From Enterobacter phage fGh-Ecl02, in the sequence record ON212266.1: a DNA stretch of 64,000 bases; one strand, 5' to 3'. Numbering within the stretch: the first letter of the stretch is position 1; each line of letters begins with the position of its first letter. Both the position numbers and the translations under genes were made by a program. Of the stretch, positions 12,758 to 51,205 are shown one piece after another. A model generated the notes under the pieces. The model saw nothing but the letters and a program-made list of their open reading frames with translations. It ran no database searches and was not told where the DNA came from.

Positions 12758-13552
12758 ATGGCCATTCTAAAACTTGGCAACCGTGGCACTGAAGTGAAGG
12801 CACTTCAGAATAGCCTCAACAAAATCGGCTTCACCCTCGTCGCTGATGGTATCTTTGGCAAGGCAACAGAGAACGCCGTCAAGACGGTTCAGGCGGGTGC
12901 GGGGCTTGTCATTGATGGTATCGTAGGTCCAAAGACCTCCTATGCTATTCGCAACGCCGGAGACGCCCATCAGGATCATCTAACTGAGTCAGACCTGATT
13001 GATGCTGCTAATGATCTGGGTGTTGACCTTGCCTCTGTCAAGGCGGTGAATCAGGTTGAGTCGCGCGGCACGGGCTTCACCAAGTCAGGTAAGATCAAGA
13101 CATTGTTTGAGCGCCACATCATGTATAAGAAGCTGATGGCAAAGTTCGGACAGGCTCGGGCGAATGCCATGGGGCATATGTACCCGACGTTGGTCAGCCC
13201 GACTGCAGGTGGGTACACGGGTGGTGACGCGGAGTTGGATCGACTTCATGCGGCCATCAACATCGATGAGGATTGTGCGTACGAGAGCGCCTCTTACGGT
13301 CTCTTCCAGATCATGGGATTCAACTGCCAGGTCTGTGGATACGCCAACGCCAAGGAGATGTTCAACGACTTCCTGACAGGAGAACGTGCTCATTTGATGG
13401 CATTCGTAAAGTTCATCAAGGCTGACGCCAAGCTCTGGCAGGCTCTGAAGGACAAGAACTGGTCTGAATTTGCACGGCGCTATAATGGTCCGGCGTATGC
13501 CAAGAACCAGTACGACAAGAAGCTCGCAGCAGCATACAAGAGTTTCAGTTAA
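12758..13552 (+). CDS. Endolysin: N-terminal peptidoglycan-binding domain plus C-terminal N-acetylmuramidase (DUF3380/PF11860-like)
   Basis: PG_binding_1-like LQNSLNKIGF...DGIFGKATENAVKTVQ; muramidase motifs QVESRGTGF, ERH, YGLFQIMG. Confidence 0.8.
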   Translation: MAILKLGNRGTEVKALQNSLNKIGFTLVADGIFGKATENAVKTVQAGAGLVIDGIVGPKTSYAIRNAGDAHQDHLTESDLIDAANDLGVDLASVKAVNQVESRGTGFTKSGKIKTLFERHIMYKKLMAKFGQARANAMGHMYPTLVSPTAGGYTGGDAELDRLHAAINIDEDCAYESASYGLFQIMGFNCQVCGYANAKEMFNDFLTGERAHLMAFVKFIKADAKLWQALKDKNWSEFARRYNGPAYAKNQYDKKLAAAYKSFS

Positions 13553-13654
13553 CTCAAAGGCCGGAAACGGCCTTTTCTTTATCCAATCCTCAGGTATGCT
13601 GGGGTTGTCACCTTAATTAGAGGTGATGACACCCTGAGATATAGGAAGGTTCCC

Positions 13655-14497
13655 ATGCAATCTGCCACCAAAGTTGTAAGTAAGAAGCCAGCGGGTAAGA
13701 CCAAGTCAGCACGTAAGAAGGAGACAATCCAGAAAGAAGATGACTGGATGAAGTTCTCTAAAGGTGACTTCAGAATCGCTCCGTTCAATGGCCTCTCAGA
13801 AAATCAGAACCTCGCATATCAATCTGCTCTTGTAGAAAACCTCACCATCGCAATCGGTCCGGCAGGCACGGGTAAATCGTACTGTGGTGCCTCAGCTGCC
13901 GCCAAGCTCCTGATCGATAAAGTGGTCAGTAAGATCGTCATCACGCGCTCTCCGCTGCCGACAGGCCAGACTGCAGGCTTCCGCCCTGGCGACACATACG
14001 AAAAGCTGATGCCATATCTGATGCCCCTGATTCAGACGCTGAAGAAGGTGCTGAAGACTGACACAGGTAGCGACGGTTTCTTCAACTATCTGTGGGAGAA
14101 GCGGATCATTGAGATCCAGGATCTGGAGACCATCAAGGGGATGACCTTTGACGACACCTTCCTGATCATTGAAGAAGCACAGGAATGTGATATGGAGCAG
14201 CTGAAGAACCTACTGACCCGCGCATCTGACTCGACTTACATCTTCGTCAACGGTGACATCAAACAGTCCAACAAGCGCCTGCGCGACAGCGCCCTTGAAA
14301 AGTACGTCAGTTCCTTCCGCGACTTCAACGCCAAGCTGGAGGCCGGAACCCTGAAGATCGATGGTGTTGGCGTCGGTGATGAGTACCCTGAATGGGTTCA
14401 GCCGTTCAGCATCATCGAGTTCGACAAGTCTGACCGCAACGGGCGCGGCGACTTCACCCGCCTGATGCTGGAAGTCAACGATCTGTACGACATTTAA
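13655..14497 (+). CDS. phoH: PhoH-like ATPase
   Basis: Walker A GPAGTGKS plus the PhoH signature around LIIEEAQE; 280 aa. Confidence 0.8.
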   Translation: MQSATKVVSKKPAGKTKSARKKETIQKEDDWMKFSKGDFRIAPFNGLSENQNLAYQSALVENLTIAIGPAGTGKSYCGASAAAKLLIDKVVSKIVITRSPLPTGQTAGFRPGDTYEKLMPYLMPLIQTLKKVLKTDTGSDGFFNYLWEKRIIEIQDLETIKGMTFDDTFLIIEEAQECDMEQLKNLLTRASDSTYIFVNGDIKQSNKRLRDSALEKYVSSFRDFNAKLEAGTLKIDGVGVGDEYPEWVQPFSIIEFDKSDRNGRGDFTRLMLEVNDLYDI

Positions 14498-14516
14498 GTA
14501 ACTCGCCAACCCTCCC

Positions 14517-14543
14517 CGCCGCCTTCAATCTACGAGGGCGGCG
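14517..14543 (+). terminator. Stem-loop CGCCGCC-N13-GGCGGCG followed by TATAATAAAA
   Basis: 7 bp GC stem; the downstream TATAAT may double as the nrd promoter -10. Confidence 0.4.
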
Positions 14544-14580
14544 TATAATAAAACCTGCGTAAACAAACCCGAGGAACACC

Positions 14581-16863
14581 ATGATTAACGTTATAAAACG
14601 TGACGGATCTTCTGTCCCATTTGATATTGAGAAACTACACGCAGTCGTAGACCGCGCCTGTGATGGCCTGTCTGGTGTGTCAATGTCAGAGGTGATCGCT
14701 GCATCGAAGATTCAGTTCACCGACAACATGAGAACAGATCGCATTCAGGATATCCTCATCCAGGCTGCGGCTTCACTGATCTCTGTAGACAAACCCAATT
14801 ACCAGTATGTGGCTGCTCGTCTGAAGTCGTATGATCTGCGCAAGGCTGTCTACGGTCAGTACAAGCCGCCTCACCTGCTGGACATCTTCGTCAAGAACAT
14901 CAAACAGCGCGTGTATGATCGTGAGTTCCTTGATCTCTACACGACCGAAGAGTTCAACGAGCTGAACGATGTCATCAATCACAAACGCGATAAGAACTTC
15001 ACGTGGGCGGCCATGGGTCAGCTGACTGAGAAGTACCTGTTGCGCGACCGTTCCAAGAAAGACAGCAAGATCTTCTACGAAACCCCTCAGGTCATGTACA
15101 TGGGCATCGCCATGGCGTTGTTCTCTAACTGGGACAAAGCCAGCCGCCTGGAGATGGTGAAAAAGTTCTATGAATATGCCAGCACAGGCAAGTTCAGTCT
15201 TCCCACCCCGATTATGGCAGGTGTTCGTACTCCTACCCGTCAGTTCAGTTCCTGTGTGTTAATCAAGACTGATGACACCCTGAACTCTATCAACGCAACA
15301 GCCAAGACCATCGTTGACTATGTGTCCAAACGTGCGGGTATCGGCTTCGATGTCGGGGCAATCCGTGGGATTGGTAGTCCTATTCGCGGCGGAGAGATGG
15401 TTCACACAGGCCTGATCCCGTTCATCAAGTATCTCACTGGGGCACTCAAATCGTGCTCTCAGGGCGGCATTCGTGGTGGTGCAGCAACAGCGTACATCCC
15501 TCTGTGGCATTACCAGTTCGATGACGTCGTTGTTCTGAAGAACAACCGTGGTACTGAAGAAAACCGCGAACGCCGTATCGACTATGGCATTCAGATCAAC
15601 CGCGTGATGTTTGAGCGCCTGGTTGCCAAGCAGCCTCTGTATCTGTTCGACCCGAAAGACAACCGCGAAATGTATGAAGCATACTTCGCTGACGTTGACA
15701 AGTTCCGTACTCTGTATGAGAACATGATCAAGGCCGCCGATGCCGGTTTGGTTCGTGCTAAGAAGTTACAGGCAGAAGAGGTGTTCCAGATGCTGTTAGA
15801 CCAGCGTTCAGACACAGGCCGCATCTACATCGCATTTGTCGATCACATGAATGAATACAGTCCATTCAACCTAGACACGATTTATTCTTCAAATCTTTGT
15901 TTAGAAATCGCCCTGCCGACCCGTGAGTTTGAGCAGTACAACGATGAAAACGGGCGCGTGGCTCTGTGCACCCTGGCTTCCTTCAACCTGACGGCGTTCG
16001 AAGATCCTACGGAAATGGAAGACGTGGCGTTCGTGTTGGTGTCTGCGCTGGACATGCTGTTGGAATATCAGGACTATCCAGCGATTCAGGCTCGCAAGGC
16101 TGTTGAAGACTATCGTCCTCTGGGTGTTGGTATCGTGAATGTGGCTCACTTCCTGGCCAAGAACTTCACGGGCTATGGCTCACCAGCTGGTCTTGAAATG
16201 CTGGATGCGTGGATGGCACACCTGCACTTCTATCTGGTCAAGGCATCCAACCGTCTGGCTATGAAGTTCGGGGCTTGCAAACGCGGAACCATCCACAATA
16301 ATGGGCAGGTCACCGCCGATCTTCAGCCGCTTCCACTTGATATCCTACCAAATGGTAAGAAGCCGGAAGGGATGGCATACGGGCTGGATTGGGATGGGTT
16401 GAAGGATAATCTGAAGACCTATGGTATCCGCAACGCTACTCTGCTGGCAGTAGCCCCTACCGAAAGCTCCTCACAGGTCCTCAACGCAACGAACGGCATT
16501 GAGCCACCGAAGGGCTTGGTGAGCATCAAGGGTAGCAAGGACGGCACTTATAAGCAGGTCGTCCCGGACGTTGAGACCCTTGGACCGATGTATGACCTCA
16601 AGTGGGACCTGGACTGTATTGAGTACCTGAAGACCGCTGCTGTAATCCAGCGCTGGGTTGACCAGTCCATCAGTACCAACACTTGGTATGACCCAGAGAA
16701 GTACCCTGACAGCAAGATCCCTCGCGCCAAGATGATGCAGGATATCCTGTCGTTCTATATGTGGGGTGGCAAGACTCTGTATTACAACACAAACAAGGAC
16801 GCCAAGGAAGACGAAGAGCTGAAGCAGGCTGAGGAAACTCAGTGCGATAGCTGTGTTGTATAA
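14581..16863 (+). CDS. nrdA: Ribonucleoside-diphosphate reductase alpha subunit NrdA (class Ia)
   Basis: N-terminal ATP cone (VIKRDGS..FD..KL), active-site NLCLEI, C-terminal CDSCVV redox pair; 760 aa. Confidence 0.9.
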   Translation: MINVIKRDGSSVPFDIEKLHAVVDRACDGLSGVSMSEVIAASKIQFTDNMRTDRIQDILIQAAASLISVDKPNYQYVAARLKSYDLRKAVYGQYKPPHLLDIFVKNIKQRVYDREFLDLYTTEEFNELNDVINHKRDKNFTWAAMGQLTEKYLLRDRSKKDSKIFYETPQVMYMGIAMALFSNWDKASRLEMVKKFYEYASTGKFSLPTPIMAGVRTPTRQFSSCVLIKTDDTLNSINATAKTIVDYVSKRAGIGFDVGAIRGIGSPIRGGEMVHTGLIPFIKYLTGALKSCSQGGIRGGAATAYIPLWHYQFDDVVVLKNNRGTEENRERRIDYGIQINRVMFERLVAKQPLYLFDPKDNREMYEAYFADVDKFRTLYENMIKAADAGLVRAKKLQAEEVFQMLLDQRSDTGRIYIAFVDHMNEYSPFNLDTIYSSNLCLEIALPTREFEQYNDENGRVALCTLASFNLTAFEDPTEMEDVAFVLVSALDMLLEYQDYPAIQARKAVEDYRPLGVGIVNVAHFLAKNFTGYGSPAGLEMLDAWMAHLHFYLVKASNRLAMKFGACKRGTIHNNGQVTADLQPLPLDILPNGKKPEGMAYGLDWDGLKDNLKTYGIRNATLLAVAPTESSSQVLNATNGIEPPKGLVSIKGSKDGTYKQVVPDVETLGPMYDLKWDLDCIEYLKTAAVIQRWVDQSISTNTWYDPEKYPDSKIPRAKMMQDILSFYMWGGKTLYYNTNKDAKEDEELKQAEETQCDSCVV

Positions 16864-18843: not shown

Positions 18844-19194
18844 ATGCAAGATTACAAAGAGTTGAGAATGCAGCTGGCAGTCCCCATACCAGACAAAGGT
18901 TTATACCAGAACCTGCATCATCTGATGTCTGAAGGGCATATGCTGCCCTTGCGGTCTGAGGATGGATCTCAGATCGGTTATGCCACCAGTTGCGTGGTCT
19001 ACGACAAACCAGGAGACGAAGAGCGCGGAAAGGTCAGTGTGGGTTCCAGATTTGTGTTGAACAAGAAGCTGGAGGGATCAGTGGTTGACGTCAGGCCGAT
19101 GATTATCCTCTACCAATTCAACGGCAAAGAAATGTTCAGGTTATTGAGCCACTTCATGTTAGTCGTGGCTCCGGCATTCAGGACGAAATTCTAA
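18844..19194 (+). CDS. Hypothetical protein (116 aa)
   Basis: GGAG RBS; tail-to-tail with gp25. Confidence 0.45.
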   Translation: MQDYKELRMQLAVPIPDKGLYQNLHHLMSEGHMLPLRSEDGSQIGYATSCVVYDKPGDEERGKVSVGSRFVLNKKLEGSVVDVRPMIILYQFNGKEMFRLLSHFMLVVAPAFRTKF

Positions 19195-22623: not shown

Positions 22624-23148
22624 ATGCGCGGATTTTGTTTTAGTGAAATAGGCAAAGAACTGTCTATACAATATCCCGATCCCAACACAGACTTCTTTAT
22701 CTTCCTGACCGATTATGCCAAGAAAGAGAATATCCTCCATGTGGCAATGAAACACGAAGATTATAAGTTCTGTCGGCTGGGTGTCAAAGACCTGCTGCGT
22801 TATGGTCTACAAGTGGTCATCGTAGACCCATACTACAGCCCTATCGACGATGAAGAAGTTCTACCCGTATATGTTCACCGCAACATCAATACATTGGAAA
22901 AGCATTATCCAGATTGTATTGTCATCGGCGAACTCATCTCGTATTATCATCGTGGGCGAAAGCTGGAACAGATTAAAAGTTATTTTCAAGAGGGTGTTGG
23001 TCAATATAAGATGAATGCCCTTAGTAGTGGATGGATGGTACTGTCTTCAGCAGGCAGTGCTGACTATATTAAGATGCGTGTCTACCAATACGTTGTGGAG
23101 CGCGATTATGAACTGGAGAAAAGTAATGCAAAACGAAAAACCCGTTGA
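22624..23148 (+). CDS. Hypothetical protein (175 aa)
   Basis: GAGGA RBS; transcribed divergently from the baseplate block. Confidence 0.45.
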   Translation: MRGFCFSEIGKELSIQYPDPNTDFFIFLTDYAKKENILHVAMKHEDYKFCRLGVKDLLRYGLQVVIVDPYYSPIDDEEVLPVYVHRNINTLEKHYPDCIVIGELISYYHRGRKLEQIKSYFQEGVGQYKMNALSSGWMVLSSAGSADYIKMRVYQYVVERDYELEKSNAKRKTR

Positions 23149-23617
23149 ACGTGCTCCGATTGAGGAAGTACAACAACACGTCCTGGACCTTATGAAACAC
23201 ACAGTTTCTGATGCCGAAGGTAAAGTGCCGGATGAGTTCATCGGTGCGTTCGATCAGGTGGCTTTCGATACCGAGGGAGTTCCTTTGATCCAGACGATCG
23301 CTGGTATGGTTTTGTTTGAACCAAAAGCAGTAGAAAATGGCGTAATCGTCTACTCAGCCAACATCGGTGTGGACGGTGAGTCCCTGTCTCTCGAAGTTAG
23401 TAACATTGCTAAGTACCTGATCAAGTGTGGTTATGATCTGCAGGTTGTGACAGCCCACTACATCGATCCTCAGGGGCAGATCTCCTACGGTGATGAAGCG
23501 CGCAAAGTGAAACGCCACATCGACACTACCGTGATCCTGCAGAGTATCCAACAGATGCAGAAGAACCTGGACCACCCTGGTCTGATCCTGCCTGATAGCA
23601 AAATCATCACCCGTTAA
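23126..23617 (+). CDS. Hypothetical protein (163 aa)
   Basis: GGAG RBS 8 nt upstream of ATG 23126; 23 nt overlap with the upstream gene. Confidence 0.45.
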   Translation: MQNEKPVERAPIEEVQQHVLDLMKHTVSDAEGKVPDEFIGAFDQVAFDTEGVPLIQTIAGMVLFEPKAVENGVIVYSANIGVDGESLSLEVSNIAKYLIKCGYDLQVVTAHYIDPQGQISYGDEARKVKRHIDTTVILQSIQQMQKNLDHPGLILPDSKIITR

Positions 23618-23668
23618 CCCGGCGTAAATAGCCCATACACCAATGAAACTTCGTTATGGGCTATTTAC

Positions 23669-24259
23669 ATGAAATATTGCGGAATCGACTACTCCTATGG
23701 CTGTCCATCCCTGTGCTTCTGGGATGATAAAGACCCTCTTGATTTTGATCATCTGCGCTTCTACGCATATTATACTGTGGAGAAGTACTGCACTCAGATT
23801 CGTCAGAACATCCTTATCATGAAGCAACCGAAGTGGGAGACCCCAGAAGAACGCTTCTATAACATCTGTAAATGGGCTGAGGCTGTCCTGTTGACTGAGA
23901 AGCCGGATGTGATCACTCTTGAAGGGTATGCTATGGGCAACTCTAAGAACTCCAACAACATATGCCAGACCGCAGAGAATACCTCACTGTTGAAGCAAGC
24001 CCTGCGCCGTAACAATTTCGACTTCCAGATCGTGACGCCATCCCATGTGAAGAAGATGTTCACCGACAAGGGCAACGCGGATAAACACGCCATGATCGCT
24101 CACTTCGAGTCACTGTTCAATGTTAGCATGCGCGGTATAATGGATATGTTGGAAGTTAAGGATCCCAAGCCAATCGATGACCTCGTGGATTCGTTTGCGA
24201 TAATGGCTTGTGGCTCTTACTTCATTGAGAATAATCCAGACTTCAACAGAGGTATATGA
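23669..24259 (+). CDS. Putative RuvC-like Holliday junction resolvase
   Basis: N-terminal MKYCGIDYSYGCPSLCF resembles the RuvC/YqgF start (ILGIDPG..TG); later acidic residues (EGYAMGN, DKHAMIAHFE). Confidence 0.4.
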   Translation: MKYCGIDYSYGCPSLCFWDDKDPLDFDHLRFYAYYTVEKYCTQIRQNILIMKQPKWETPEERFYNICKWAEAVLLTEKPDVITLEGYAMGNSKNSNNICQTAENTSLLKQALRRNNFDFQIVTPSHVKKMFTDKGNADKHAMIAHFESLFNVSMRGIMDMLEVKDPKPIDDLVDSFAIMACGSYFIENNPDFNRGI

Positions 24260-24570
24260 TGGTCGATTATTGGTTGTTGGCGAACTTCCTGACGTTCGCT
24301 TTGTTGTTAGTGGTTGTCTTGGTCTGGGTGAAGTCGTTCTTCACTTTGGTTCATGCGTATGTGTACCAGATCAACTTCTACACACTGTCCCCACATCGTG
24401 ACACGAACGTTCGTGCCGATCAACAGGCCGAGGCTATCCTCTCATATCAGTTCATCCACATGCGCGATAAAATGATCAAGCGTGTAGTGTTTTCTACAGT
24501 GATGTTGCTGGTTATCATTATGGTACGTTTCGTGCTGACAACCGTGGGGGTGTTCCATGCCGCTGTATGA
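24256..24570 (+). CDS. Small membrane protein (2 TM)
   Basis: Hydrophobic stretches LLANFLTFALLLVVVLVWV and VVFSTVMLLVIIMV. Confidence 0.45.
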   Translation: MMVDYWLLANFLTFALLLVVVLVWVKSFFTLVHAYVYQINFYTLSPHRDTNVRADQQAEAILSYQFIHMRDKMIKRVVFSTVMLLVIIMVRFVLTTVGVFHAAV

Positions 24571-24802: not shown

Positions 24803-25040
24803 CGAAAAACAGCCAGCGCTTGTGATGACACCAGAATTATTTTCTGAAATCGTCCTACTACGCGCCGCCCAAACCAAGGATAGTATCCTTGAGACTTTGG
24901 CAGCTGTCTGTGAAGAGAACGACATAGACGAGACCAAAGTCAAAAAGATGATTACAGCACCATTGTTGTCACGACTGACAGCTGAGTGCTCCGATGCGCG
25001 CCTGATCAAAGACGCGCTAAAGTCTAAGAAATTAGTGTAG
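24795..25040 (+). CDS. Hypothetical protein (81 aa)
   Basis: Compact operon spacing. Confidence 0.4.
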   Translation: MSDEKQPALVMTPELFSEIVLLRAAQTKDSILETLAAVCEENDIDETKVKKMITAPLLSRLTAECSDARLIKDALKSKKLV

Positions 25041-25047
25041 GTCTATT

Positions 25048-25287
25048 ATGAGCAAAGAATCAATTTACAGCGCAATGAAAGCTGCCGAGTTTCTTCCTGG
25101 CGCAATGCGCTGGCGTGTGGGTAGCCTGAACGAGAATGCTGACCAGACGGATCGTATTCGTTACGTTACCCCTGATGGTCGCTCATATGTTGTTGAGTAT
25201 CACACGCACGACGAAGGCAAGAAGACGTTTTCGGACGTGTTCGACATTATTGAAATTGACCCAGCAAATCAAGTGCTTAAAGGTTAA
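25048..25287 (+). CDS. Hypothetical protein (79 aa)
   Basis: Compact operon spacing. Confidence 0.4.
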   Translation: MSKESIYSAMKAAEFLPGAMRWRVGSLNENADQTDRIRYVTPDGRSYVVEYHTHDEGKKTFSDVFDIIEIDPANQVLKG

Positions 25288-25318
25288 TTCAATGTAAGAT
25301 CGGGGTATAATTACCCCG
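25286..25318 (+). promoter_or_regulatory. AATTCAAT box followed by hairpin CGGGGTA-TAAT-TACCCCG containing TATAAT, upstream of gene 32
   Basis: Seen directly; the same AATTCAAT...TATAAT architecture recurs at 30275, 36515 and 39290. Confidence 0.4.
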
Positions 25319-25386
25319 CTTTGTAGCAAACTGAAAATACATGTAACAGAATAGCCCTGAGGGGCGGAAACAGAGGAAATTAAGAA

Positions 25387-26397
25387 ATGGGTAATTTATT
25401 CGAACGTCTGAAAGCGTCCCGTGGTCAGCAAACTGAAGCAATGCAGGCGCGTCTTGCACAGCAAGGCCAGAAGTCCGGTTTCCAGAAGGATCCTCGCATC
25501 TGGAAATGGACTTGGAACAAAGATGGTATCTCCGAGAATATCATCCGCTTCCTGCCAGTCCCGCTGGTAGACCTCAAGGCACAGGAAGAAGGGACGATCG
25601 ATAAAGATCAGATCCTCACCCCTTGTGCCATGATCATGAAGCATCAGTTCCAGGGACCTGGTGGTTGGTACATTGAGAACTCACCTCAGACGTTCGGCAA
25701 CGACGATCCGGTGCGCGACCATGACCGTCCGCTGTGGGCGCAGCAGAAAGAAACGAACGACGAAAAGCTGAAGGACATCCTGAAGAAACGTCTACCCGAC
25801 ACCAAATACTACGCTAACATCCTGGTGATCAAAGATGTCAACGTACCGGAAAACAACGGCAAGGTCTTCCTGCTGGAATTTGGTAACGCCATCAAGAAAA
25901 TCCTGGATCAGGCGCAGAATCCTAAGTTCCCAACCGACCCTAAATTCGATCCGTTCGATCTGTGGGAAGGTGCCAACCTGAACCTGAAGCTCTTTGGCGA
26001 GCAGAAGAAGTTTGGGAACTGGGAAGGTCTGGTGGCAAACTTCAGTAAGGTGGTGTGGGAGAACCCTGCCCCGCTGAGTGATGACGAAGCGTATATGGAA
26101 GACGTCTGGTCTCGTGAGCATAGCCTGTTTGAATTCTTCAATCCGGCTAACTTCAAAGACTACGACACCCTGGAAAAGCGCCTGCGCAAAGTTCTGGCAA
26201 TTCCTGATGACCAGCCTCTGGTTGAAGGTGGTGCAGCCACGATGGCTCATGCTCCTAGCACCCAGACTACACATCAGCCAACTGCTCAAGACAGCTTGAA
26301 ACAGCAACAGGCCGCGCCATCGCAGGCTCAGACTCAACCGGATGCCAGAAACACGGCTACCATTGATGAATTCGAGCAGTATCTCAAGTCTAACTGA
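25387..26397 (+). CDS. 32: Single-stranded DNA-binding protein gp32
   Basis: IRFLPVP...WYIENS... and NILVIKDVNVPENNGKVFLLEFG match T4 gp32 (AVIRFLPS..., NVLIIKDPAHPENNGKVF); acidic/Gln-rich C-terminal tail. Confidence 0.75.
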   Translation: MGNLFERLKASRGQQTEAMQARLAQQGQKSGFQKDPRIWKWTWNKDGISENIIRFLPVPLVDLKAQEEGTIDKDQILTPCAMIMKHQFQGPGGWYIENSPQTFGNDDPVRDHDRPLWAQQKETNDEKLKDILKKRLPDTKYYANILVIKDVNVPENNGKVFLLEFGNAIKKILDQAQNPKFPTDPKFDPFDLWEGANLNLKLFGEQKKFGNWEGLVANFSKVVWENPAPLSDDEAYMEDVWSREHSLFEFFNPANFKDYDTLEKRLRKVLAIPDDQPLVEGGAATMAHAPSTQTTHQPTAQDSLKQQQAAPSQAQTQPDARNTATIDEFEQYLKSN

Positions 26398-29424: not shown

Positions 29425-30261
29425 ATGTCATATATTCTTCATGTGGATTCTGGAACCAAAATTGAAATTGAAGGCAAAGACGTTGCTGCTATTCAGGCTG
29501 AAATCAAAGAAGCAGGTCTGATCATCGGAAACGTTACCCTGCGCCGTATGGTTGAAGGTGTTCTTCAGGCTGCCAACGGCTTCGAACTGATTGAAGGTCT
29601 GAGCGCCGAAGAGAAGGAAGAAACCCAGCAGGCTCTGGCGCAAGCCCAAGAGCAAGCCCAAGCTGAAGTATCCCTGAAAGTCGCTGAAACCGTCGATGCT
29701 GAAGCACCGATCTCTGCCGATGCATGTGAAGCCCCAGTGTCCGACGCCCCGGTAGACGCGGTTGAAGATGCAGTCAACGCGGCGCTGGAAGAAGGCAATC
29801 AGCCGTCCGACGCGAAAATCGGTTCCTTAGCGTCTTCTATGCTGAAAGAAGCATCGAAGGGTAAGACCCTGACCCCGCAGGCGGCGCTGGTAGAGCGTAA
29901 ACGCCGTCACACCAAACGTGAGGAAATGGTTGACTTGGCTCGCGCTTCTAATCACGGTCCGGTCTTGGCGGCGATTGAAGCTGGTGTTGTTCCCGGCGTG
30001 TTCCTGAGCTACGTGAACCCAGACATGCGTTGGTTCCAGTTCCCGGTCACCGAACTGGCTAACCCTGAAAACCTTCACGCCCGCACCAATACGTATGTCG
30101 ACGTTGCGCCTATCGTTTCCGGTGGCTGGGGCTTCAGTCTGTACGTGAACGGCAAGTCCTTCACCAAACGTCAGAAGATCAAAGAGTCTGATGCTGAGTC
30201 TCTGGTTAAGGCGATCAATGAATGGCTTCCACAGGCTCTGGCTGAAGCGAAAGCTGTGTAA
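29425..30261 (+). CDS. Highly expressed early protein of unknown function with an acidic Ala/Glu-rich linker (278 aa)
   Basis: Strong promoter, extreme major-codon bias, acidic low-complexity segment. Confidence 0.6.
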   Translation: MSYILHVDSGTKIEIEGKDVAAIQAEIKEAGLIIGNVTLRRMVEGVLQAANGFELIEGLSAEEKEETQQALAQAQEQAQAEVSLKVAETVDAEAPISADACEAPVSDAPVDAVEDAVNAALEEGNQPSDAKIGSLASSMLKEASKGKTLTPQAALVERKRRHTKREEMVDLARASNHGPVLAAIEAGVVPGVFLSYVNPDMRWFQFPVTELANPENLHARTNTYVDVAPIVSGGWGFSLYVNGKSFTKRQKIKESDAESLVKAINEWLPQALAEAKAV

Positions 30262-30274
30262 ATTTAAGTTCAGA

Positions 30275-30312
30275 AACTGTTCAATAGATGAAGGGGTTGC
30301 TATAATAGCAGC
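30275..30312 (+). promoter_or_regulatory. GTTCAAT box followed by TATAATAGCAGC, a -10-like element shared with the ligase upstream region
   Basis: 12-mer TATAATAGCAGC identical at 30301 and 39767. Confidence 0.4.
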
Positions 30313-30336
30313 TCCTTTTGTTTATCGGAGCAGTTT

Positions 30337-30996
30337 ATGTCCTACTCCCTGAAGGGGCTGATGAAGCGCCCCGTCCACACATTCTTTAAACCACCCGTCG
30401 TAAAGGGGATCTACCCAGCACGAGGGCAAATCTACTACGTCAAAGGCTCCAATGGTAGCGGTAAATCCACTGTGCCGTCTCAGCTGGCGGAGAGGGATCC
30501 TCAGGCGTATGTCGTGACCCATAACGGCAAGGTCATGCTGACTGTCTGTCCTTCGTTCAACGTGGTGTGTATCGGTAAATATGACAAGTCGAAGTCCAAG
30601 GGGGTTGATTCCCTGAAGGACACTGAGCAGATGTTGTTCGCGTTGTCTATTGCTGACCAACCAGAATACTTGAAATATGATGTGATTTTCGAAGGTATCA
30701 TTCCATCAACATTATTGAGTTCTTGGATCCCCCGCCTGACACGCCCACCACGTGAATTGGTTGTGCTCTTTATGGACACTCCCCTTGAAACGTGTATCTC
30801 CCGCGTTAAATCACGTAACGGTGGTGTGGACTTCAATGAAGGTCTGGTGGTCGAGAAGTGGGAGAGAGTTCATGACCATCGTCAACGACATAAAGACTTG
30901 TTCCCTACGGTGGCTGCGGGTATGATGAAGTCTCACGGCCTAACGGTAGACCAGGCTGTGATGGCATTCCTCTGTCGTGATTTTGGGAGTATCTGA
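30337..30996 (+). CDS. P-loop kinase (Walker A GSNGSGKST); candidate 5-hydroxymethyl-pyrimidine DNA kinase (5-HMUDK-like)
   Basis: Walker A; 219 aa; sits immediately upstream of, and ATGA-coupled to, the hydroxymethylase gene; T4 has no counterpart at this position. Confidence 0.5.
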   Translation: MSYSLKGLMKRPVHTFFKPPVVKGIYPARGQIYYVKGSNGSGKSTVPSQLAERDPQAYVVTHNGKVMLTVCPSFNVVCIGKYDKSKSKGVDSLKDTEQMLFALSIADQPEYLKYDVIFEGIIPSTLLSSWIPRLTRPPRELVVLFMDTPLETCISRVKSRNGGVDFNEGLVVEKWERVHDHRQRHKDLFPTVAAGMMKSHGLTVDQAVMAFLCRDFGSI

Positions 30997-32042
30997 TGGA
31001 AATCAAATCAATTAACAATAATGACATGCTGAAGCAGGCTGTCTTGGCTATCCGTGAATTCGGGATCGAATCTGATCCTGGTAATGCTGAAATCAATACT
31101 GATAGCACCCGCTTCCTTGATGGTGTGACGATCACTGTTTCCGATATTCGTGACCGCTGGCTCTCCGTTGAAGGTCGCAACTCATCGGCTATCGCTGCCA
31201 TCGGCGAGACCTTCTGGGTGTTGTCAGGTCGCAACGACATAAAGTTCCTGTCACGTGTATTGCCTCGCGCTGCTAACTTTTCGGATGATGGGGTAACATG
31301 GCGAGCTGCTTATGGTCCGCGTCTGTACGCCCATGGCCAGCTGGATAGCGTTATCAACCGCCTGCGCAAGAACCCAAACACTCGCCAGGCGTACCTCACT
31401 ATTTATGATCCGGCTTTGGATTCGGATGCTGGTCTGGCGAAGTTCAGCGAGAGCGGCGAAGCAAAGACTAAGGACATGGTGTGTAACCTGGCTCTGTTGT
31501 TCGCCATCGTTGAAGGTCGTCTGAACCTGACGGTCATCAATCGCTCACAGGATGTTCTGTGGGGGATGAGTTCAATTAACTTCATTGAGTTCTCTATTCT
31601 TCAGGAAGTGATTGCTCGGGTGCTGGATGTTGATGTCGGTCAGTACAAGCTATTCTCTAACAATCTTCATTACTACAACAATGAAGTCAGCCAGAAGCAG
31701 CTGGGCAAGATCACGAAGGACACCAAAGTAGAAGCTGGGTTCATCAACTCCATGATTCACTTCACGAACGTGACCAACCAGAACCATATCCGCAATCTGT
31801 TCACTGGTGTGCTTCATCACTGTGATATCGGTAGCCCGTGGGAAACTGTGGTCGCTCACCTGAAGGAATACGATGCGGATCGCGGTCTGATTTTGCAGAT
31901 GGCATACTGCCTGCACTGCAAATTGAATAACAAGCTCATTAACCTGGACCTGATTCAGGATCATGGCTTGAACACCGCGCTCACCCATTCCCCGGTTGAC
32001 CGCAAGATCATTGATCCTAAGTTCCTGGAAGGTGTAGTATGA
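30996..32042 (+). CDS. Thymidylate-synthase-fold pyrimidine hydroxymethylase (gp42-like dCMP/dUMP hydroxymethylase)
   Basis: DMVCNLALLFAIVEGRLNLTVINRSQDVLWG aligns with T4 gp42 DFMCTNTVQYLIRDKKINAVVNMRSNDVVFG (Cys nucleophile, RSxD); 348 aa. Confidence 0.75.
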   Translation: MEIKSINNNDMLKQAVLAIREFGIESDPGNAEINTDSTRFLDGVTITVSDIRDRWLSVEGRNSSAIAAIGETFWVLSGRNDIKFLSRVLPRAANFSDDGVTWRAAYGPRLYAHGQLDSVINRLRKNPNTRQAYLTIYDPALDSDAGLAKFSESGEAKTKDMVCNLALLFAIVEGRLNLTVINRSQDVLWGMSSINFIEFSILQEVIARVLDVDVGQYKLFSNNLHYYNNEVSQKQLGKITKDTKVEAGFINSMIHFTNVTNQNHIRNLFTGVLHHCDIGSPWETVVAHLKEYDADRGLILQMAYCLHCKLNNKLINLDLIQDHGLNTALTHSPVDRKIIDPKFLEGVV

Positions 32043-32608
32043 TGTACCCAAATCTTGAATTCTTTACGGGGCGCAAGCGCTCCGGTAAGGACTTCTGTTT
32101 GGAGTCCCTGATCAGTTACCACCACTTACAGGGTGATATGGACATACAGCGCCTTTCTTTCTCTGATGAACTGCGCCGTGTAGCCAACTACATCTACCCA
32201 TGGCTCCCAGCGGAGGTAGAGGATGCCGTGAAGGACGTTCCTTACGTGCACCCTGATAACCCCAAGGGCTTAACTCCACGGCAGATCTGGCTTCATCTAG
32301 GCAGCGATACGGGCTTGCGTTACGTACAACCTGATCTGTTCCTGGCATTCTTCAAGCGCTTCCAGCTTCCTCTGGTAGAGCAGAACCCCCACGTCCATTA
32401 TATCGTGAGCGATCTGCGTACCCCTCAGGAATATGAATGGGCGCTGAGTACGAAATGTCCTATCACCCGTATTTCAAAGGCCGACCGTGCTGGTATCATA
32501 GAGGACGATATAGAGGCTTTCATTGACCAAATGAAAGTGGACTACGAATTCCTCAATCCATTTGATGGTTGGGAACCGTTCGTTAAATTCTACGGAGAAC
32601 GTAAATGA
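32039..32608 (+). CDS. 1: Deoxynucleoside monophosphate kinase (gp1-like)
   Basis: FFTGRKRSGKDFCLESLI matches T4 gp1 FLSGVKRSGKDTTADFI; 189 aa. Confidence 0.7.
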   Translation: MMYPNLEFFTGRKRSGKDFCLESLISYHHLQGDMDIQRLSFSDELRRVANYIYPWLPAEVEDAVKDVPYVHPDNPKGLTPRQIWLHLGSDTGLRYVQPDLFLAFFKRFQLPLVEQNPHVHYIVSDLRTPQEYEWALSTKCPITRISKADRAGIIEDDIEAFIDQMKVDYEFLNPFDGWEPFVKFYGERK

Positions 32609-33159
32609 TCACAGCAGGGCATATCCAAAGCCTGCTCGAACTCCAAAAGGCCACCAACGTGGCCTACTTTGGGGAAGAGTGGAAGAATGTATGGAGTCAG
32701 AATGCAGTCATCAACTCTATCTATCGTGAGTGGGCAGAGTTCCTTGATGAAACCACCCGTGACTGGAAGGTCTATGGCAACGACATCGGGTTTGACCATA
32801 CGAACGCAGTTTATGAACTGGTGGACGTGGTACACTTCATGTTGTGCTTCATCCTTGTGGACCGCACCAAAGGTGAGATCGAAGAAGAATTTGAAGTCCT
32901 TAGTAATCGCGAATTCACCCCATCTGCTTTGGGTGTTGTAGGGCATCGTAATGTTACGTACCGCCTTGGGCAATTCATGAACGACCCTTGCGTTGAGACT
33001 CTCATGTTCTTCCTGTCGTCTGCGTGTTCTTATATGGAGATCGACATTGAGACTTACATACTGGCACACAAACGCAAGAACGATCGCAATCGTCTGCGTG
33101 CTTCTGGTGGCGCGGATTACGACAAGTCCGCAGAAACCCCTCTGACCTTGGAGTTCTAA
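32605..33159 (+). CDS. 56: dNTP pyrophosphatase gp56-like (dCTPase/dUTPase, MazG-type all-alpha fold)
   Basis: ELVDVVHFMLCFILVD matches T4 gp56 ELVDIFHFVLNMFVGL. Confidence 0.65.
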   Translation: MITAGHIQSLLELQKATNVAYFGEEWKNVWSQNAVINSIYREWAEFLDETTRDWKVYGNDIGFDHTNAVYELVDVVHFMLCFILVDRTKGEIEEEFEVLSNREFTPSALGVVGHRNVTYRLGQFMNDPCVETLMFFLSSACSYMEIDIETYILAHKRKNDRNRLRASGGADYDKSAETPLTLEF

Positions 33160-33704
33160 TGTTTACAGTCGTCGTTTCATACCATGCGGAGAACGCTGCT
33201 CAGGCATCCTCCAAATTCGCCGAGCACATCATCGGCGGCGGCCATAATGTATTCCTTACTGAATACAACAGGCCTGTTAAACCGGGCGACGGTCTTTCGG
33301 CGACTGTTACGCATAAGATCGCCAGCGAGCAACCAGAGTCTCTGTTCAGAATGATCGAAGAATATGCCGGTGGTGGTGGCACCAAGATACCAGATGAACT
33401 GGTAGACGTCTATTTTGAAGGCTCGATCTATTACATCCACGCTATGCCAAAGGATATAACCATTGAACAGATGATGTATATCCTGAATATAGCACTGAAC
33501 ACTGCGTGCATCAACCGCACGAACTACAACAATCTGCGCAATATGTACCTAACCGACCGGCATAATGACGCATCGTCACTTGTTGAGACAATGTCCCTGA
33601 AGAGCATCCAAGAGGCGGTTAACATTTTGTCCCAGAAGGTTATGGGTGTAGACTTACTAACGACGATTAACAACAAAGAGGAAGTGAAATGGCCAGTTCA
33701 TTAA
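33159..33704 (+). CDS. Hypothetical protein (181 aa)
   Basis: ATGA-type coupling to the upstream gene. Confidence 0.45.
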   Translation: MFTVVVSYHAENAAQASSKFAEHIIGGGHNVFLTEYNRPVKPGDGLSATVTHKIASEQPESLFRMIEEYAGGGGTKIPDELVDVYFEGSIYYIHAMPKDITIEQMMYILNIALNTACINRTNYNNLRNMYLTDRHNDASSLVETMSLKSIQEAVNILSQKVMGVDLLTTINNKEEVKWPVH

Positions 33705-34774
33705 TGGACCGCATGCTGAAGGTTGCTAAGAAACACGATGACCAGGCTTCAGTGCTGTCCCAATCAGACGCTCTGGAACCGTCTATCATCTGTTCTACTG
33801 GTATTCCCCTGATCGACATCGCATGGTCTGGGCGTATTGACGGCGGCCTGATCTCCGGTATCAAGATGATGGTGGGTGATTCCCGTACCTTCAAAACGAT
33901 GTTCGGTCTGGTGGACGTCAAGGCGTACATGGACAAGTTCCCTGATGCTATCTGCGTCTTTGCGGACTCAGAAAAGGGTGCCAACGCTGATTACTGGACC
34001 TCTATGGGCATTGACATGGACCGCGTCCTGTACGTACCGATCGACAACGTTGAACAGACCAAGATCCGCTTGCTGCAGATCCTACAGGAAGTCAAGAAAG
34101 GCGACCATGTTATAATCTTCATCGACTCTATCAGCCAACTTCCCTCCACCAAGGAAGTTGAAGATGCGATCAAAGGGAACGACACTCAAGACATGACCCG
34201 CGCCCGTGCCCTCAACAGCTTCTGGCGTGTCATGACTCCTGAAATCAACAGCAAAAATCTCGTGTGTGTTTGGATCAACTCCTATTACGATGAGATCGGC
34301 AACCAGTATGCCGAGCCAAACATCAAAGGCGGCAAGCAGGGCTTCTTATCCTCCAACTTGATCTGGTTTATCACCCGTTCTCAGGTGAAGGAAGACAAAG
34401 ATCTGCTGGGCTGGAACTTCAACATAAGCATCATGAAAGGTCGCCATGTCAAAGAGAAAGCCAAGCTCCCTGTGACGGTACTGTACAACGGCGGCATTGA
34501 TCGCTGGAGCGGCCTGCTTGAGATCGCTCGTGCTCTGGGTTATGTTGATATGCCGTCTTCCGGCTGGTATGTGCGTACAGCCAAGGGTGGTTTCGATCCT
34601 GAGAAGGAAAAGAAATATCAGAAGCGTCAGATGGGTGATGATTTCTGGTATCCGCTGCTGGAGAATGTCAACTTCGCCGATGACGTGAAGAAGATGTTCG
34701 GTGTTTCTAACGGTACTGTTATGCCTGCGAACATGCTGGAGCAAATGGACCATGTTATTAACACAAGCGAATAA
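33689..34774 (+). CDS. uvsX: UvsX RecA-like recombinase
   Basis: RecA core Walker A GDSRTFKT and Walker B VIIFIDSIS; 361 aa. Confidence 0.85.
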   Translation: MASSLMDRMLKVAKKHDDQASVLSQSDALEPSIICSTGIPLIDIAWSGRIDGGLISGIKMMVGDSRTFKTMFGLVDVKAYMDKFPDAICVFADSEKGANADYWTSMGIDMDRVLYVPIDNVEQTKIRLLQILQEVKKGDHVIIFIDSISQLPSTKEVEDAIKGNDTQDMTRARALNSFWRVMTPEINSKNLVCVWINSYYDEIGNQYAEPNIKGGKQGFLSSNLIWFITRSQVKEDKDLLGWNFNISIMKGRHVKEKAKLPVTVLYNGGIDRWSGLLEIARALGYVDMPSSGWYVRTAKGGFDPEKEKKYQKRQMGDDFWYPLLENVNFADDVKKMFGVSNGTVMPANMLEQMDHVINTSE

Positions 34775-37287: not shown

Positions 37288-37369
37288 CTTCAATAACTTT
37301 ACTTTCAAGAAATAATCGCCTAATATTTAATCTGTATTGAAGAGTTACAACTACATCATGAGGCTGGAA

Positions 37370-38563
37370 ATGAACGTCAAAACATTCAATATTCCGATCG
37401 ACAATGAAGGGTTGGTAGTTGAGCGACTGAAGAAGCTCGAGCGCACTGCCGAAAGGTTGGGTGTTCCGTTTCCGACTGTGACTTATGGTGAACCCTTCAA
37501 AACCCACACCCGCGACTTCACTGGTGAGATCCTTACCCACTGGTGGAAACCTGTTACTCTCGAAGGCGAAGGCATTGACCGCCCCATCTCTTATGGTGGC
37601 TGGAAGATCATCGGTCAGTTCAATCACGAATATCCAAAGGTTATTATTAACCGCCTGTCCGACAACATCAATCCTGACTTCATCCGTCGCTTCGAGACAG
37701 AGAACGTCTCTTGGTGTCAGCATTGCAATCTAGCCATCCGTCGCAAGAACACGTATGTGATTGAAAATGAGGAAACGCATACCCAGATGCTGATTGGTAG
37801 CACCTGTATGCATCATTATGTGCCTCATCAGAAGTCCCTTGACGCGATTATGTCTTACTATCTGGAAATCCAAGAGTTCTTCATGCCAGACGAGGACGAC
37901 CCAGAGGGTATATATCGCGTCCAAAATGAGCGCTTCACCGACACCCACAGTTACCTGCGCGCATGCTTCCAGGTGATGCTGGCAGGCGTGGATATCAAGT
38001 CTGAACTGTTTGATAAAGTACTGGGCTATGTCCGGTCTCACCAGAAACCAAAAGCAGGTTCCGATGAAGAGTATTTCGTAAACAAGGCACACGAATACCG
38101 TGAAGATGCCGAGTCGGAAATGTACCATATGAAGCTTTTCATCAGTGCGCTGTCCGAATCTAATGAGTTCAATGTTCGCCTGAAACGCATGTGTGAACCC
38201 GGCTATCACCTCATCAAGGATAACAACACAGTCCGCTGGGGTGCCAAGAAGTATTACGATTACATCCATCGTCCTCGTACTGACCGCAAGGTGGAGAACA
38301 AATGGGTGGGTGAAGTCGGTGAAATGCTGGAAGTGCAAGTCAGGTTCGATAAGCGCACCTTCCTCTTCTCCAATGAATATGGTGATAGCTACCTGTTTAC
38401 TTTCAAAACAGCAGAAGGCAATACAATTACCTGGAAGACCTCTTATATGGATACAGAGTTCTTGCAGGGCGATATGATCATCCGTGGTCGTGTCAAAGAA
38501 CTGACTGAGTACAACGGCGTTAAACAAACTCAGGTCACCAGAGCCAAATTGAGGAAATTATGA
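37370..38563 (+). CDS. Hypothetical protein (397 aa) with a CxxC...CxHH cluster
   Basis: GAGG RBS before ATG 37370; the upstream in-frame ATG 37359 lies in the conserved CAACTACATCATGAGG box; WCQHC...STCMHH suggests metal binding. Confidence 0.55.
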   Translation: MNVKTFNIPIDNEGLVVERLKKLERTAERLGVPFPTVTYGEPFKTHTRDFTGEILTHWWKPVTLEGEGIDRPISYGGWKIIGQFNHEYPKVIINRLSDNINPDFIRRFETENVSWCQHCNLAIRRKNTYVIENEETHTQMLIGSTCMHHYVPHQKSLDAIMSYYLEIQEFFMPDEDDPEGIYRVQNERFTDTHSYLRACFQVMLAGVDIKSELFDKVLGYVRSHQKPKAGSDEEYFVNKAHEYREDAESEMYHMKLFISALSESNEFNVRLKRMCEPGYHLIKDNNTVRWGAKKYYDYIHRPRTDRKVENKWVGEVGEMLEVQVRFDKRTFLFSNEYGDSYLFTFKTAEGNTITWKTSYMDTEFLQGDMIIRGRVKELTEYNGVKQTQVTRAKLRKL

Positions 38564-39687: not shown

Positions 39688-39758
39688 CTGAGGACTACGC
39701 ACTGACCTCATTATCAGCCAGGCAAAATCCCGCACCCGCCAATAATCTATTGAAGTCC

Positions 39759-48764: not shown

Positions 48765-49274
48765 TTATTTGTCAGGGTTCACTAAAACAGGGGTGGATAC
48801 CAGTTCGCCGTTCTTCACAGAATGCTGGACTACAACAAACTGATCGACCATTCGATATACTTCAATTCCAGCAGCCAGCATGTCAATAATGCCGTCTATG
48901 ATACGATATGGTCGGTCATAGAACACTTTAGCGATCTTGCCACTGTCGATAATACGACGGGTGCACTCTGGGCATGGACTATGAGTGACAAACATCACCA
49001 GGCCACAACAGTCTTCGGTGTGCTGGGGGAGTTTGCTCAGAGCATTCTCCTCGGCGTGAATAACACCCACCGATACCAGTTGACCGTCTACTTCCTTCTC
49101 ACAGACATTAGGAGCGCCAGGAGCAGTCCCGTTCCAACCGATAGACAGGGGCTGGTCAACACGCGGGTCAACGATAACACAGCCGACCTTCAGGCGCTGG
49201 GCATAGCTGGACAGAGCGTATGCATGAGCCGAGCGCATATGCGCAAATAACATACGGGGTTTGATAGCCATCAC
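48765..49274 (-). CDS. cd: dCMP deaminase (cytidine/deoxycytidylate deaminase zinc-binding family)
   Basis: HAEENAL and PCPECTRRI zinc-ligand motifs; 169 aa. Confidence 0.8.
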   Translation of the reverse strand: MMAIKPRMLFAHMRSAHAYALSSYAQRLKVGCVIVDPRVDQPLSIGWNGTAPGAPNVCEKEVDGQLVSVGVIHAEENALSKLPQHTEDCCGLVMFVTHSPCPECTRRIIDSGKIAKVFYDRPYRIIDGIIDMLAAGIEVYRMVDQFVVVQHSVKNGELVSTPVLVNPDK

Positions 49275-49993: not shown

Positions 49994-50307
49994 GACAATA
50001 CTCCTTTCAGAGCCAAAACGGAAAGCACACCAATAATCAACCATGTCGGGATAATCGGCTTGCAGTTCATGTGGGTTTCTCCACCTTCGATGTTCGGACT
50101 TCCTTGTATAAGAACGTGTTCACAGGAAGCTCTGAACGTCATTACACAGCCCATCAACACAATCGGCCTGATATAATAACCCGTTTTAGTTTGCTTCACG
50201 ATACATGGAGAGGAGAAGCGCAGATATGGATCCCCTTTCCGGTAGCCTGTGATTGTGACCTTCTGCACTTCAGAAGGCACTTTTTGGCCAGGAAAATAAA
50301 TTTTCAT
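49990..50307 (-). CDS. Hypothetical protein with C-terminal TM helix (105 aa)
   Basis: Compact operon spacing. Confidence 0.4.
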
Positions 50308-50864
50308 ATTTCAATCCCCAGATTGGTGTATAACAACTCAGACATGGTTACAGGGCGCTTGAATTGTTCCCAACTACAGTTCAGGTATTCACGTTCTTCA
50401 CGCATTTCACTGTGAAGATGACCATGGATATTATACGCCCAGCGGTCTAATTGATAAGGAACGTGAGTGGTCAACACACGACCAACCGGAGTATCACGCT
50501 CATACATCGCACCAAAGGAGCTAATCCATCCCTCTTGATACAGCTGCATCAACATCTTGAAGCTGTCATGGTTGCCTTGCGCCACCCTGATGATAAAGTT
50601 CGGACGCCAGTCATCGGGAACTGGGCGGCGCTTGAACTCATCAATATTCCTCTTGGCACCCTCGCGCATCAGGCGAATGAACCCCTCAGCCCCGATGAAG
50701 CAGATGTCCCCAGCCAGTTCAAGGACGTCTCGGGACTTCAGCCCCTGAAAGATACTGTCGATAACTGCAGCATCATGTGCCTCTTGGGTATCGAACCCAC
50801 GGGGATTAAAGATCTTCTTGTGCCCAAGGTGGGTGTCGCCCAGATACTTTACAATTCCTGCCAT
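50304..50864 (-). CDS. Calcineurin-like metallophosphoesterase
   Basis: Motifs GDTHLGH, GNHD, GHLH. Confidence 0.65.
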
Positions 50865-51205
50865 TATGGTTTCCTCAACCATTCTAAAATCGGTACGTTC
50901 ACAAACCCTTTATGCCAGCGATGGGGTTTATGGCCTCTGTTGTGTTCGAGCAAACACGTGTCCGGTGGGACACTGAAGTGGATGCCGTCGATGTCGTAGT
51001 AATGCCCATCAATCAGAGTATACACATGACCTTCGGTCTGACTGTAATGGATCTCTGCTCGAGGGTACACGTGCTTCAACAACAGAGCGACCTGGTAACA
51101 CTTCCCGTTCTTCCCCACGTACTCGACATCCACCTGTTGTGGAAACACATCTTTGACAAGGTTTATCAATCTCGTGATGTCGTTCACCACAACAGACGGT
51201 TTCAT
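50864..51205 (-). CDS. Hypothetical His-rich protein (113 aa)
   Basis: Compact operon spacing. Confidence 0.4.

Follow-up and report, generated by a model that had tools for sequence, protein, structure and literature searches.

A predicted ViI-type thymidine hypermodification module in the Agtrevirus-like Enterobacter phage fGh-Ecl02

Within a stretch of 64,000 nucleotides from Enterobacter phage fGh-Ecl02 (sequence record ON212266.1; hereafter, the window), a compact cluster of four nucleotide-modification genes occupies positions 30337-33159. We interpret this cluster, with a probability of about 0.92, as the conserved Ackermannviridae module that swaps thymidine for 5-hydroxymethyldeoxyuridine (5-hmdU) and starts its hypermodification, here carried by an Agtrevirus-like phage. 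As such it corresponds to the thymidine hypermodification module published for ViI, here in an ordinary isolate, and is already known: work of 2018-2021 described the pathway, the enzymes that form it and how it is distributed in the Ackermannviridae, and named the phages Ag3, SKML-39 and LIMEstone, close relatives of this one. A preliminary description of the window had argued that an extra P-loop kinase together with a thymidylate synthase (TS) homolog of the Asn type implies 5-hmdU hypermodification. This reasoning proved sound, but the novelty that it also suggested did not hold, and that the window itself belongs to a ViI-like phage had gone unnoticed.

Organisation of the cluster and its leading kinase

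The cluster comprises four open reading frames (ORFs) on the plus strand, which encode a predicted 5-hmdU DNA kinase (ORF1, 30337-30996, 219 amino acids), a predicted dUMP hydroxymethylase of the TS fold (ORF2, 30996-32042, 348 amino acids), a deoxynucleoside monophosphate (dNMP) kinase of the T4 gp1 family (ORF3, 32039-32608, 189 amino acids) and an all-alpha nucleoside triphosphate (NTP) pyrophosphohydrolase (ORF4, 32605-33159, 184 amino acids), all with exactly the coordinates first given for them. All four junctions, including that with the following gene, are stop/start overlaps. Those at 32039-32042 and 32605-32608 are of the ATGA type originally assigned to the whole set, but those at 30996 (TGATG) and 33159 (TAATG) are overlaps of a single nucleotide. 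The four genes are thus present and coupled as proposed, but the chain is longer and runs on through a fifth gene, ORF5, and uvsX.

The leading gene, ORF1, matches the Pfam family PF18748 (HMUDK_HMUD1, 5-hmdU DNA kinase) at an E-value of 1.1e-108 and 361.6 bits, far above the curated cut-off of 27 bits and over model positions 1-195 of 196, and carries a Walker A motif (GSNGSGKST) at residues 37-45. It is 87.7% identical over 219 amino acids to gp67 of Salmonella phage ViI (YP_004327432), for which phosphorylation of 5-hmdU in DNA has been demonstrated in vitro (Lee et al., 2021, NAR; PMC8989533), and both genes lie directly upstream of a TS-like gene. Judged by profile, orthology and synteny, ORF1 is a 5-hmdU DNA kinase (5-HMUDK), the syntenic ortholog of ViI gp67, and is predicted to convert 5-hmdU to 5-phosphomethyldeoxyuridine (5-PmdU) in DNA, the role that had been suggested for this additional kinase at the head of the operon by comparison with ViI-like, M6, PhiW-14 and SP10 phages. 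The preliminary description had taken homology to a thymidylate or polynucleotide kinase as the outcome that would speak against this role. The corresponding PHROG matches (thymidylate kinase, phrog_761, 2e-6; polynucleotide kinase, phrog_505, 0.008) are negligible beside that to PF18748.

The best PHROG match of ORF1 is to phrog_800 (1e-67), which is labelled "terminase small subunit", evidently a wrong label for this protein. In the RefSeq records of ViI (Vi01_061c), Ag3 (orf00067), SKML-39 and others, the kinase is likewise called "terminase small subunit" or "thymidylate kinase", and in LIMEstone "tk", while the genuine small terminase of ViI is another gene (Vi01_162c). In the record of Escherichia phage vB_EcoM-ZQ1, a close relative discussed below, the kinase gene is annotated in a shortened form of 174 amino acids.

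Uracil or cytosine as the target of the TS-fold enzyme

ORF2 belongs to the Thymidylat_synt family (Pfam: PF00303; 1.2e-15), with Cys163 as the catalytic residue, the sequence RSQD at 183-186 and roughly 100 additional residues at the C-terminus, and is 76.8% identical to ViI gp66 ("thyA"). Among PHROG families, it maps to phrog_3676 (7e-183), then to phrog_5131, which holds the dUMP hydroxymethylases of SP82G and M6-like phages (1e-58), and to phrog_160, the T4 gp42 family (2e-25); gp42 itself has phrog_160, and not phrog_3676, as its best family. With 57.8 bits, ORF2 falls far below every NCBIfam equivalog cut-off for ThyA (327 or more), and it is 33-37% identical to the M6-like and SP82G hydroxymethylases as against 22-24% to T4-type td.

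The residue that discriminates between the two bases was located in a MAFFT alignment of ORF2, ViI gp66, the M6-like enzyme of phage S218, the SP82G enzyme, Escherichia coli ThyA and T4 gp42, in which C163, R183, S184, D186 and G190 (ORF2 numbering) are invariant. The motif SSINF spans residues 192-196, and its Asn195 shares a column with Asn177 of ThyA and Asp179 of T4 gp42. The four phage enzymes of the dUMP type have in common an inserted residue behind the conserved Gly and an Asn in the column of Asn195, and the HMMER alignment of ORF2 to a ThyA structure puts the gap at the same place and Asn195 in the same column; in the cytosine-specific enzyme MilA, aligned by HMMER, an Asp stands at the adjacent position. 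This Asn had been reported before as lying "within one position" of the specificity residue, which is explained by the one-residue insertion typical of the dUMP hydroxymethylase subfamily.

In addition, we found no second TS-family gene in the window, ZQ1 or ViI, and no homologs of the T4 alpha- or beta-glucosyltransferases in the same three sequences (tblastn, E-value of 0.01 or better); together with a conserved Asp, these had been named as the marks of an ordinary T4-type pathway. Asn195, the profile resembling dUMP hydroxymethylases, the single TS gene and the lack of a glucosyltransferase therefore point to dUMP as the substrate, and ORF2 most likely makes 5-hmdUMP and not 5-hmdCMP, the direction in which the first reading of the motif had leaned.

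Enzymes of the nucleotide pool

ORF3 has a P-loop (GRKRSGKD) at residues 11-18, is 91.0% identical to ViI gp65 ("dnk") and falls into the dNMP kinase family phrog_139 (1.2e-47), as does T4 gp1 (1.8e-65). We found no PDB match by sequence even up to an E-value of 1 and no Pfam family above threshold, so that the link to gp1 rests on the shared PHROG profile; pairwise BLAST between the two aligns a patch around the P-loop (0.003). ORF4 matches the Pfam family dUTPase_2 (6.7e-9; 36.7 bits, with a cut-off of 22.9), finds the dimeric dUTPase of Campylobacter (1w2y; 9e-4) as its best PDB match, is 60% identical to ViI gp63 and shares phrog_173 (2.7e-40) with T4 gp56 (5.8e-39); the pairwise match to gp56 is a patch of 17 residues (0.005). 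The statement that these two proteins align with T4 gp1 and gp56 is therefore borne out at the family level, since the T4 proteins fall in the PHROGs of ORF3 and ORF4, but the pairwise similarity is barely visible and confined to short motif patches. By homology, ORF3 would convert 5-hmdUMP to 5-hmdUDP, and ORF4 would be a dUTPase/dTTPase that purges the pool of dUTP and dTTP.

Away from the cluster, at 48765-49274 on the minus strand, lies the dCMP deaminase gene that had been pointed out before. Its product matches the Pfam family dCMP_cyt_deam_1 (4.3e-16) and phrog_174 (5e-53), is the ortholog of ViI Vi01_030 (63.5% identity) and, by analogy, would supply dUMP to the hydroxymethylase. Three further genes on the minus strand are candidates for a place in nucleotide-pool metabolism: a MazG-like pyrophosphatase (phrog_1247, 58335-58916), orthologous to ViI gp11, a phosphatase (phrog_335, 53096-53710) and a phosphoesterase (phrog_547, 50304-50882). 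Any of the three may provide the dTTPase or dTMPase that one would expect of a pathway of the 5-hydroxymethyluracil (hmU) type.

Downstream enzymes and proposed pathway

In the established ViI system, 5-hmdU in DNA is phosphorylated by gp67 and gp243, serine is transferred by gp247, an enzyme of the type aGPT-Pplase2 (alpha-glutamyl/putrescinyl thymidine pyrophosphorylase 2), and the resulting O-SerT is decarboxylated to 5-(2-aminoethoxy)methyl-dU (5-NeOmdU) by gp226, an enzyme dependent on pyridoxal phosphate (PLP) (PMC8989533). Lysates containing gp67, gp160, gp226, gp243 and gp247 rebuild 5-NeOmdU on 5-hmdU DNA (Lee et al., 2018, PNAS; PMC5889632). The preliminary description had recognised no aGPT-Pplase or PLP enzyme in the window, and indeed tblastn searches with ViI gp160, gp226, gp243 and gp247 found nothing in the 64 kb. 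In line with this, when the ViI and ZQ1 proteins were compared by phmmer (--max) with the complete set of 757 stop-to-stop ORFs in the window, no match fell below an E-value of 0.05, and neither the amino acid:DNA transferase (ADDT), nor HMUD2, nor any second kinase was detected in the window by either method. One ORF of 408 amino acids (37337-38563) was considered as an aGPT-Pplase2 and rejected, its match (E-value 0.1-0.35) being a non-collinear patch of 44 residues; it has no Pfam family at 0.001 or better and belongs to a PHROG of unknown function.

On the other hand, all four of these genes have orthologs in ZQ1, and all four lie outside the ZQ1 segment that is collinear with the window. 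They are the orthologs of gp160 (113,411-114,628; 82% identity; HMUDK_hel, PF18723, 2e-80), gp226 (13,475-14,659; 91% identity; PALP, 8e-8, below threshold), gp243 (23,587-24,471; 47% identity; HMUD2, PF18747, 4e-156) and gp247 (25,032-26,264; 88.6% identity; ADDT, PF18724, 3e-59). A gp247-type transferase is found in all nine of the genomes closest to the window, at 96-100% identity, and the PLP enzyme, which matches 347 records, in at least six of the nine among the matches listed. Of the two options first offered for the downstream chemistry, that it is encoded elsewhere is accordingly supported, because relatives carry the transferase and PLP genes outside the segment matching the window, while a novel reaction by one of the unassigned ORFs finds no support.

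The second 5-hmdU DNA kinase of ZQ1 is encoded within a longer gene: its HMUD2 domain makes up the C-terminal portion (residues 236-531) of a continuous ORF of 532 amino acids (22876-24474) annotated as a "putative homing endonuclease", as compared to 304 amino acids for ViI gp243. This ORF reflects either an in-frame insertion or fusion of an endonuclease, or a mis-called start.

Combining these assignments, we propose a pathway with a pre-replicative and a post-replicative part. Before replication, the dCMP deaminase would provide dUMP, from which ORF2 would produce 5-hmdUMP with methylene-tetrahydrofolate and water; ORF3 would phosphorylate this to 5-hmdUDP and the host nucleoside diphosphate (NDP) kinase would continue to 5-hmdUTP; ORF4 would remove the competing dUTP and/or dTTP, and the phage polymerase would incorporate 5-hmdU. 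These steps we infer from homology and from the established pathway of hmU phages, whose pre-replicative part consists of dUMP hydroxymethylase, dTTPase, dTMPase, dCMP deaminase and dNMP kinase (PMC8989533). After replication, ORF1 would act on 5-hmdU in DNA, moving the gamma-phosphate of ATP onto its hydroxymethyl group and so forming 5-PmdU, the reaction shown for ViI gp67. A gp247-type transferase encoded outside the window would then swap the phosphate for serine, giving O-SerT, and a gp226-type PLP decarboxylase, also encoded outside the window, would convert this to 5-NeOmdU; both steps have been shown for ViI and are predicted here.

Relatives of the window and genome context

At the nucleotide level, the 2.8-kb cluster is 98.4% identical to that of ZQ1 (Ackermannviridae, Aglimvirinae) and 91.6% identical to that of Shigella phage Ag3, and it matches 263 phage records, essentially all from ViI-like phages. 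Over longer stretches, the window reaches 96-98% identity with nine genomes (YX22, LHE287, ZQ1, A221, vB_CECAV_050, RPN242, AV101, PC3 and PH4), none of them an exact match, and it is collinear with positions 33,389-97,619 of ZQ1 at 90-98% identity. On these sequence comparisons, the window is assigned to an Agtrevirus-like member of the Ackermannviridae, the ViI-like phages. Close relatives of it, PhiSboM-AG3, SKML-39 and LIMEstone, are listed as ViI-like 5-HMUDK phages in Table 1 of Lee et al. (2018; PMC5889632), where the 5-HMUDK gene is also reported to co-associate with a dUMP hydroxymethyltransferase, and a 2024 review describes the modification genes as conserved across the family.

Collinearity with ZQ1 is broken at several places. 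About 1.2 kb with two hypothetical genes (ZQ1 56,983-58,188) is absent from the window at 39705-39708, and short segments interrupt the match at window positions 8314-8529, 10042-10456 and 18886-19149, which is consistent with the varying complement of accessory genes and homing endonucleases described for Agtrevirus. In the opposite direction, a segment of about 0.9 kb (indel 51206-52107) is absent from ZQ1. There lies a gene for a QueC-like PP-loop ATPase (51202-51891, minus strand; phrog_1550, 3e-74), of which the Pfam family QueC covers the N-terminal 50 or so residues only; ViI Vi01_023 is also annotated "QueC-like".

The fifth coupled gene and transcription signals

ORF5 (33159-33704, plus strand, 181 amino acids) encodes an ACT-like protein and is physically part of the coupled chain; it is followed by uvsX (33689-34774), with which it overlaps by 16 nucleotides. 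It matches the Pfam family PF24021 (ACT_phage) at 2.7e-77, is the ortholog of ViI gp62 (55% identity) and has homologs in 269 phage records, almost all with host names of the Ackermannviridae type; the listed records that are annotated across the match have the arrangement pyrophosphatase-ORF5-uvsX. In the metagenomic relatives L014-L016, the order of the six genes and their junctions is unchanged, with ORF5 at 38-40% identity. The last 30 residues of the protein are nearly invariant (...NILSxKVLGxELLxxINxKEEVKWPVH), and outside this C-terminal tail it diverges faster than the adjacent enzymes. An AlphaFold2 model has an N-terminal b-a-b-b-a-b domain, with predicted local distance difference test (pLDDT) values of 83-92, and a low-confidence C-terminal part. 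Foldseek searches against the PDB returned generic ACT/ferredoxin-like folds only, none below an E-value of 1e-3, and therefore offer no functional lead. The five ViI genes that suffice to reconstitute 5-NeOmdU in vitro do not include gp62 (PMC5889632). ORF5 might take part in the 5-hmdU nucleotide pathway or regulate it, for example as a subunit that senses a small molecule or by inhibiting the synthesis of dTMP in the host, or else Agtrevirus might make a base other than 5-NeOmdU; we regard both as improbable.

Upstream of the cluster, a consensus scan located a terminator-like hairpin on the plus strand (30290-30318), with a 13-bp stem and a 3-nucleotide loop followed by the T-rich tail TGTTTAT, which ends 18 nucleotides 5' of the start codon of the kinase gene. 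Its probable effect is to end or attenuate transcripts that come from the preceding gene (29425-30261), though as evidence the hairpin is weak because terminator-like sites in this region do not exceed the shuffled expectation. We found no sigma-70-like promoter between it and the kinase gene, and therefore read-through or a non-consensus phage promoter may drive the cluster.

Weighing the alternatives

Three other explanations were weighed against the hypermodification module. That the cluster is an ordinary T4-type pathway to 5-hydroxymethylcytosine (hmC), with a dCMP hydroxymethylase, a gp1 kinase, a gp56 dCTPase and glucosyltransferases encoded elsewhere, would fit the alignment of ORF2 with T4 gp42, which takes in the catalytic Cys and the RSxD motif, had been noted at the outset and is real but weak (22% over 145 residues, pairwise E-value 5e-5), as well as the best PDB match of ORF2 by sequence, which is the CMP hydroxymethylase MilA (1.4e-17), and the PHROG families that ORF3 and ORF4 share with gp1 and gp56. 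Yet the specificity column holds Asn195 where gp42 has Asp, and MilA has its Asp at the adjacent aligned position; the operon is led by a 5-hmdU DNA kinase; the dCMP deaminase would drain dCMP; and the DNA of ViI-like phages holds modified thymidine and not hmC (PMC5889632). Asn195, the lack of glucosyltransferase homologs in the window, ZQ1 and ViI, and the identity of ORF1 lead us to reject this pathway, leaving it next to no probability. A second alternative takes the annotations of close relatives at face value ("thymidylate synthase", "putative thymidylate kinase", "terminase small subunit", "dUTP diphosphatase"): ORF2 would then be a genuine thymidylate synthase, ORF1 a kinase for thymidylate or polynucleotides (or else the small subunit of a terminase) and ORF4 a dUTPase, all serving a plain supply of dTTP with no modified base. 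It could also draw on the weak PHROG matches of ORF1 to the two other kinase families, and on the roughly 60% of T positions in ViI that are plain thymidine (PMC5889632). We nevertheless consider it very unlikely: the HMUDK match of ORF1 is better than that to thymidylate kinase by some 100 orders of magnitude, its ViI ortholog acts on 5-hmdU in DNA in vitro (PMC8989533), the small terminase of ViI is another gene, and ORF2 groups with the dUMP hydroxymethylases and scores far below the ThyA cut-offs. There is, finally, hardly any chance that the phage does without an aGPT-Pplase and PLP enzymes and that an unassigned ORF of the window performs a new substitution chemistry on 5-PmdU. Such a scheme would account for the lack of aGPT-Pplase, ADDT, PLP and HMUD2 homologs in the window, but ViI and ZQ1 carry these genes in genome segments beyond its span, the transferase is present in each of the nine genomes 96-98% identical to the window, the PLP enzyme is widespread, and the sole faint match within the window, at 37337-38563, is the non-collinear patch rejected above.

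Several points nevertheless count against the assignment to the ViI-type module. The substrate specificities of ORF2, ORF3 and ORF4 are deduced from homology; the window covers 64 kb of the genome, so that the transferase and the decarboxylase of this phage are deduced from its relatives; and a terminator-like hairpin stands directly 5' of the kinase gene. In the published work considered here, moreover, the modified base was measured in ViI, CBA120, CBA6 and 1.255.O, where 5-NeOmdU replaces about 40% of thymidine, and not in Agtrevirus, and in ViI itself the remaining 60% or so of 5-hmdU ends up as thymidine (PMC5889632).

For users of such phages, be it in therapy, cloning or restriction analysis, the ViI-type module means that hypermodified, restriction-resistant DNA is to be expected, as the modification guards the DNA against many restriction endonucleases. 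Public annotation remains a poor guide in this respect: the kinase widely goes under "thymidylate kinase" or "terminase small subunit", and the name given to the hydroxymethylase is "thymidylate synthase".

Comparison with known systems

The closest known system is that of ViI, in which the gene order is the same, orf00067-orf00066 (thyA)-orf00065 (dnk)-orf00063 (dUTPase)-orf00062-uvsX (NC_015296), and the other genes of the pathway lie dispersed over distant parts of the genome, as they do in ZQ1. The two differ in lineage, as ViI is a Kuttervirus and the window is Aglimvirinae/Agtrevirus-like, and in the second kinase, which in ZQ1 is the C-terminal part of the 532-residue ORF, whereas ViI gp243 is a protein of 304 residues.

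The hmU phages of Bacillus (SPO1, SP8, SP82G and phi-e) have in common with the window a dCMP deaminase, a dUMP hydroxymethylase, a dNMP kinase and a pyrophosphatase that removes dTTP or dUTP. The SP82G hydroxymethylase is 34% identical to ORF2, with the one-residue insertion and the Asn found in both, but these phages end at 5-hmdU and have neither 5-HMUDK nor hypermodification. In M6/YuA, whose modified base is 5-(2-aminoethyl)-dU (5-NedU), PhiW-14 and SP10, the combination of 5-HMUDK, dUMP hydroxymethylase and aGPT-Pplase2 recurs, and the M6-like proteins are about 28-31% (kinase) and 33-35% (hydroxymethylase) identical to those of the window. M6, however, has a single tight gene cluster that includes a radical-SAM (S-adenosylmethionine) isomerase, and its product is a C-C linked aminoethyl; in the window's lineage the genes are scattered and the product, by homology to ViI, would be the O-linked aminoethoxy derivative. 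The hmC system of T4, lastly, shares with the window a TS-fold hydroxymethylase with the catalytic Cys and RSxD, and a dNMP kinase and pyrophosphatase in the PHROGs of gp1 and gp56; the window differs from it in having Asn in place of Asp, an added kinase that would act at the DNA level, no glucosyltransferases found in the sequences searched, and, as predicted here, uracil/thymine rather than cytosine as the target.

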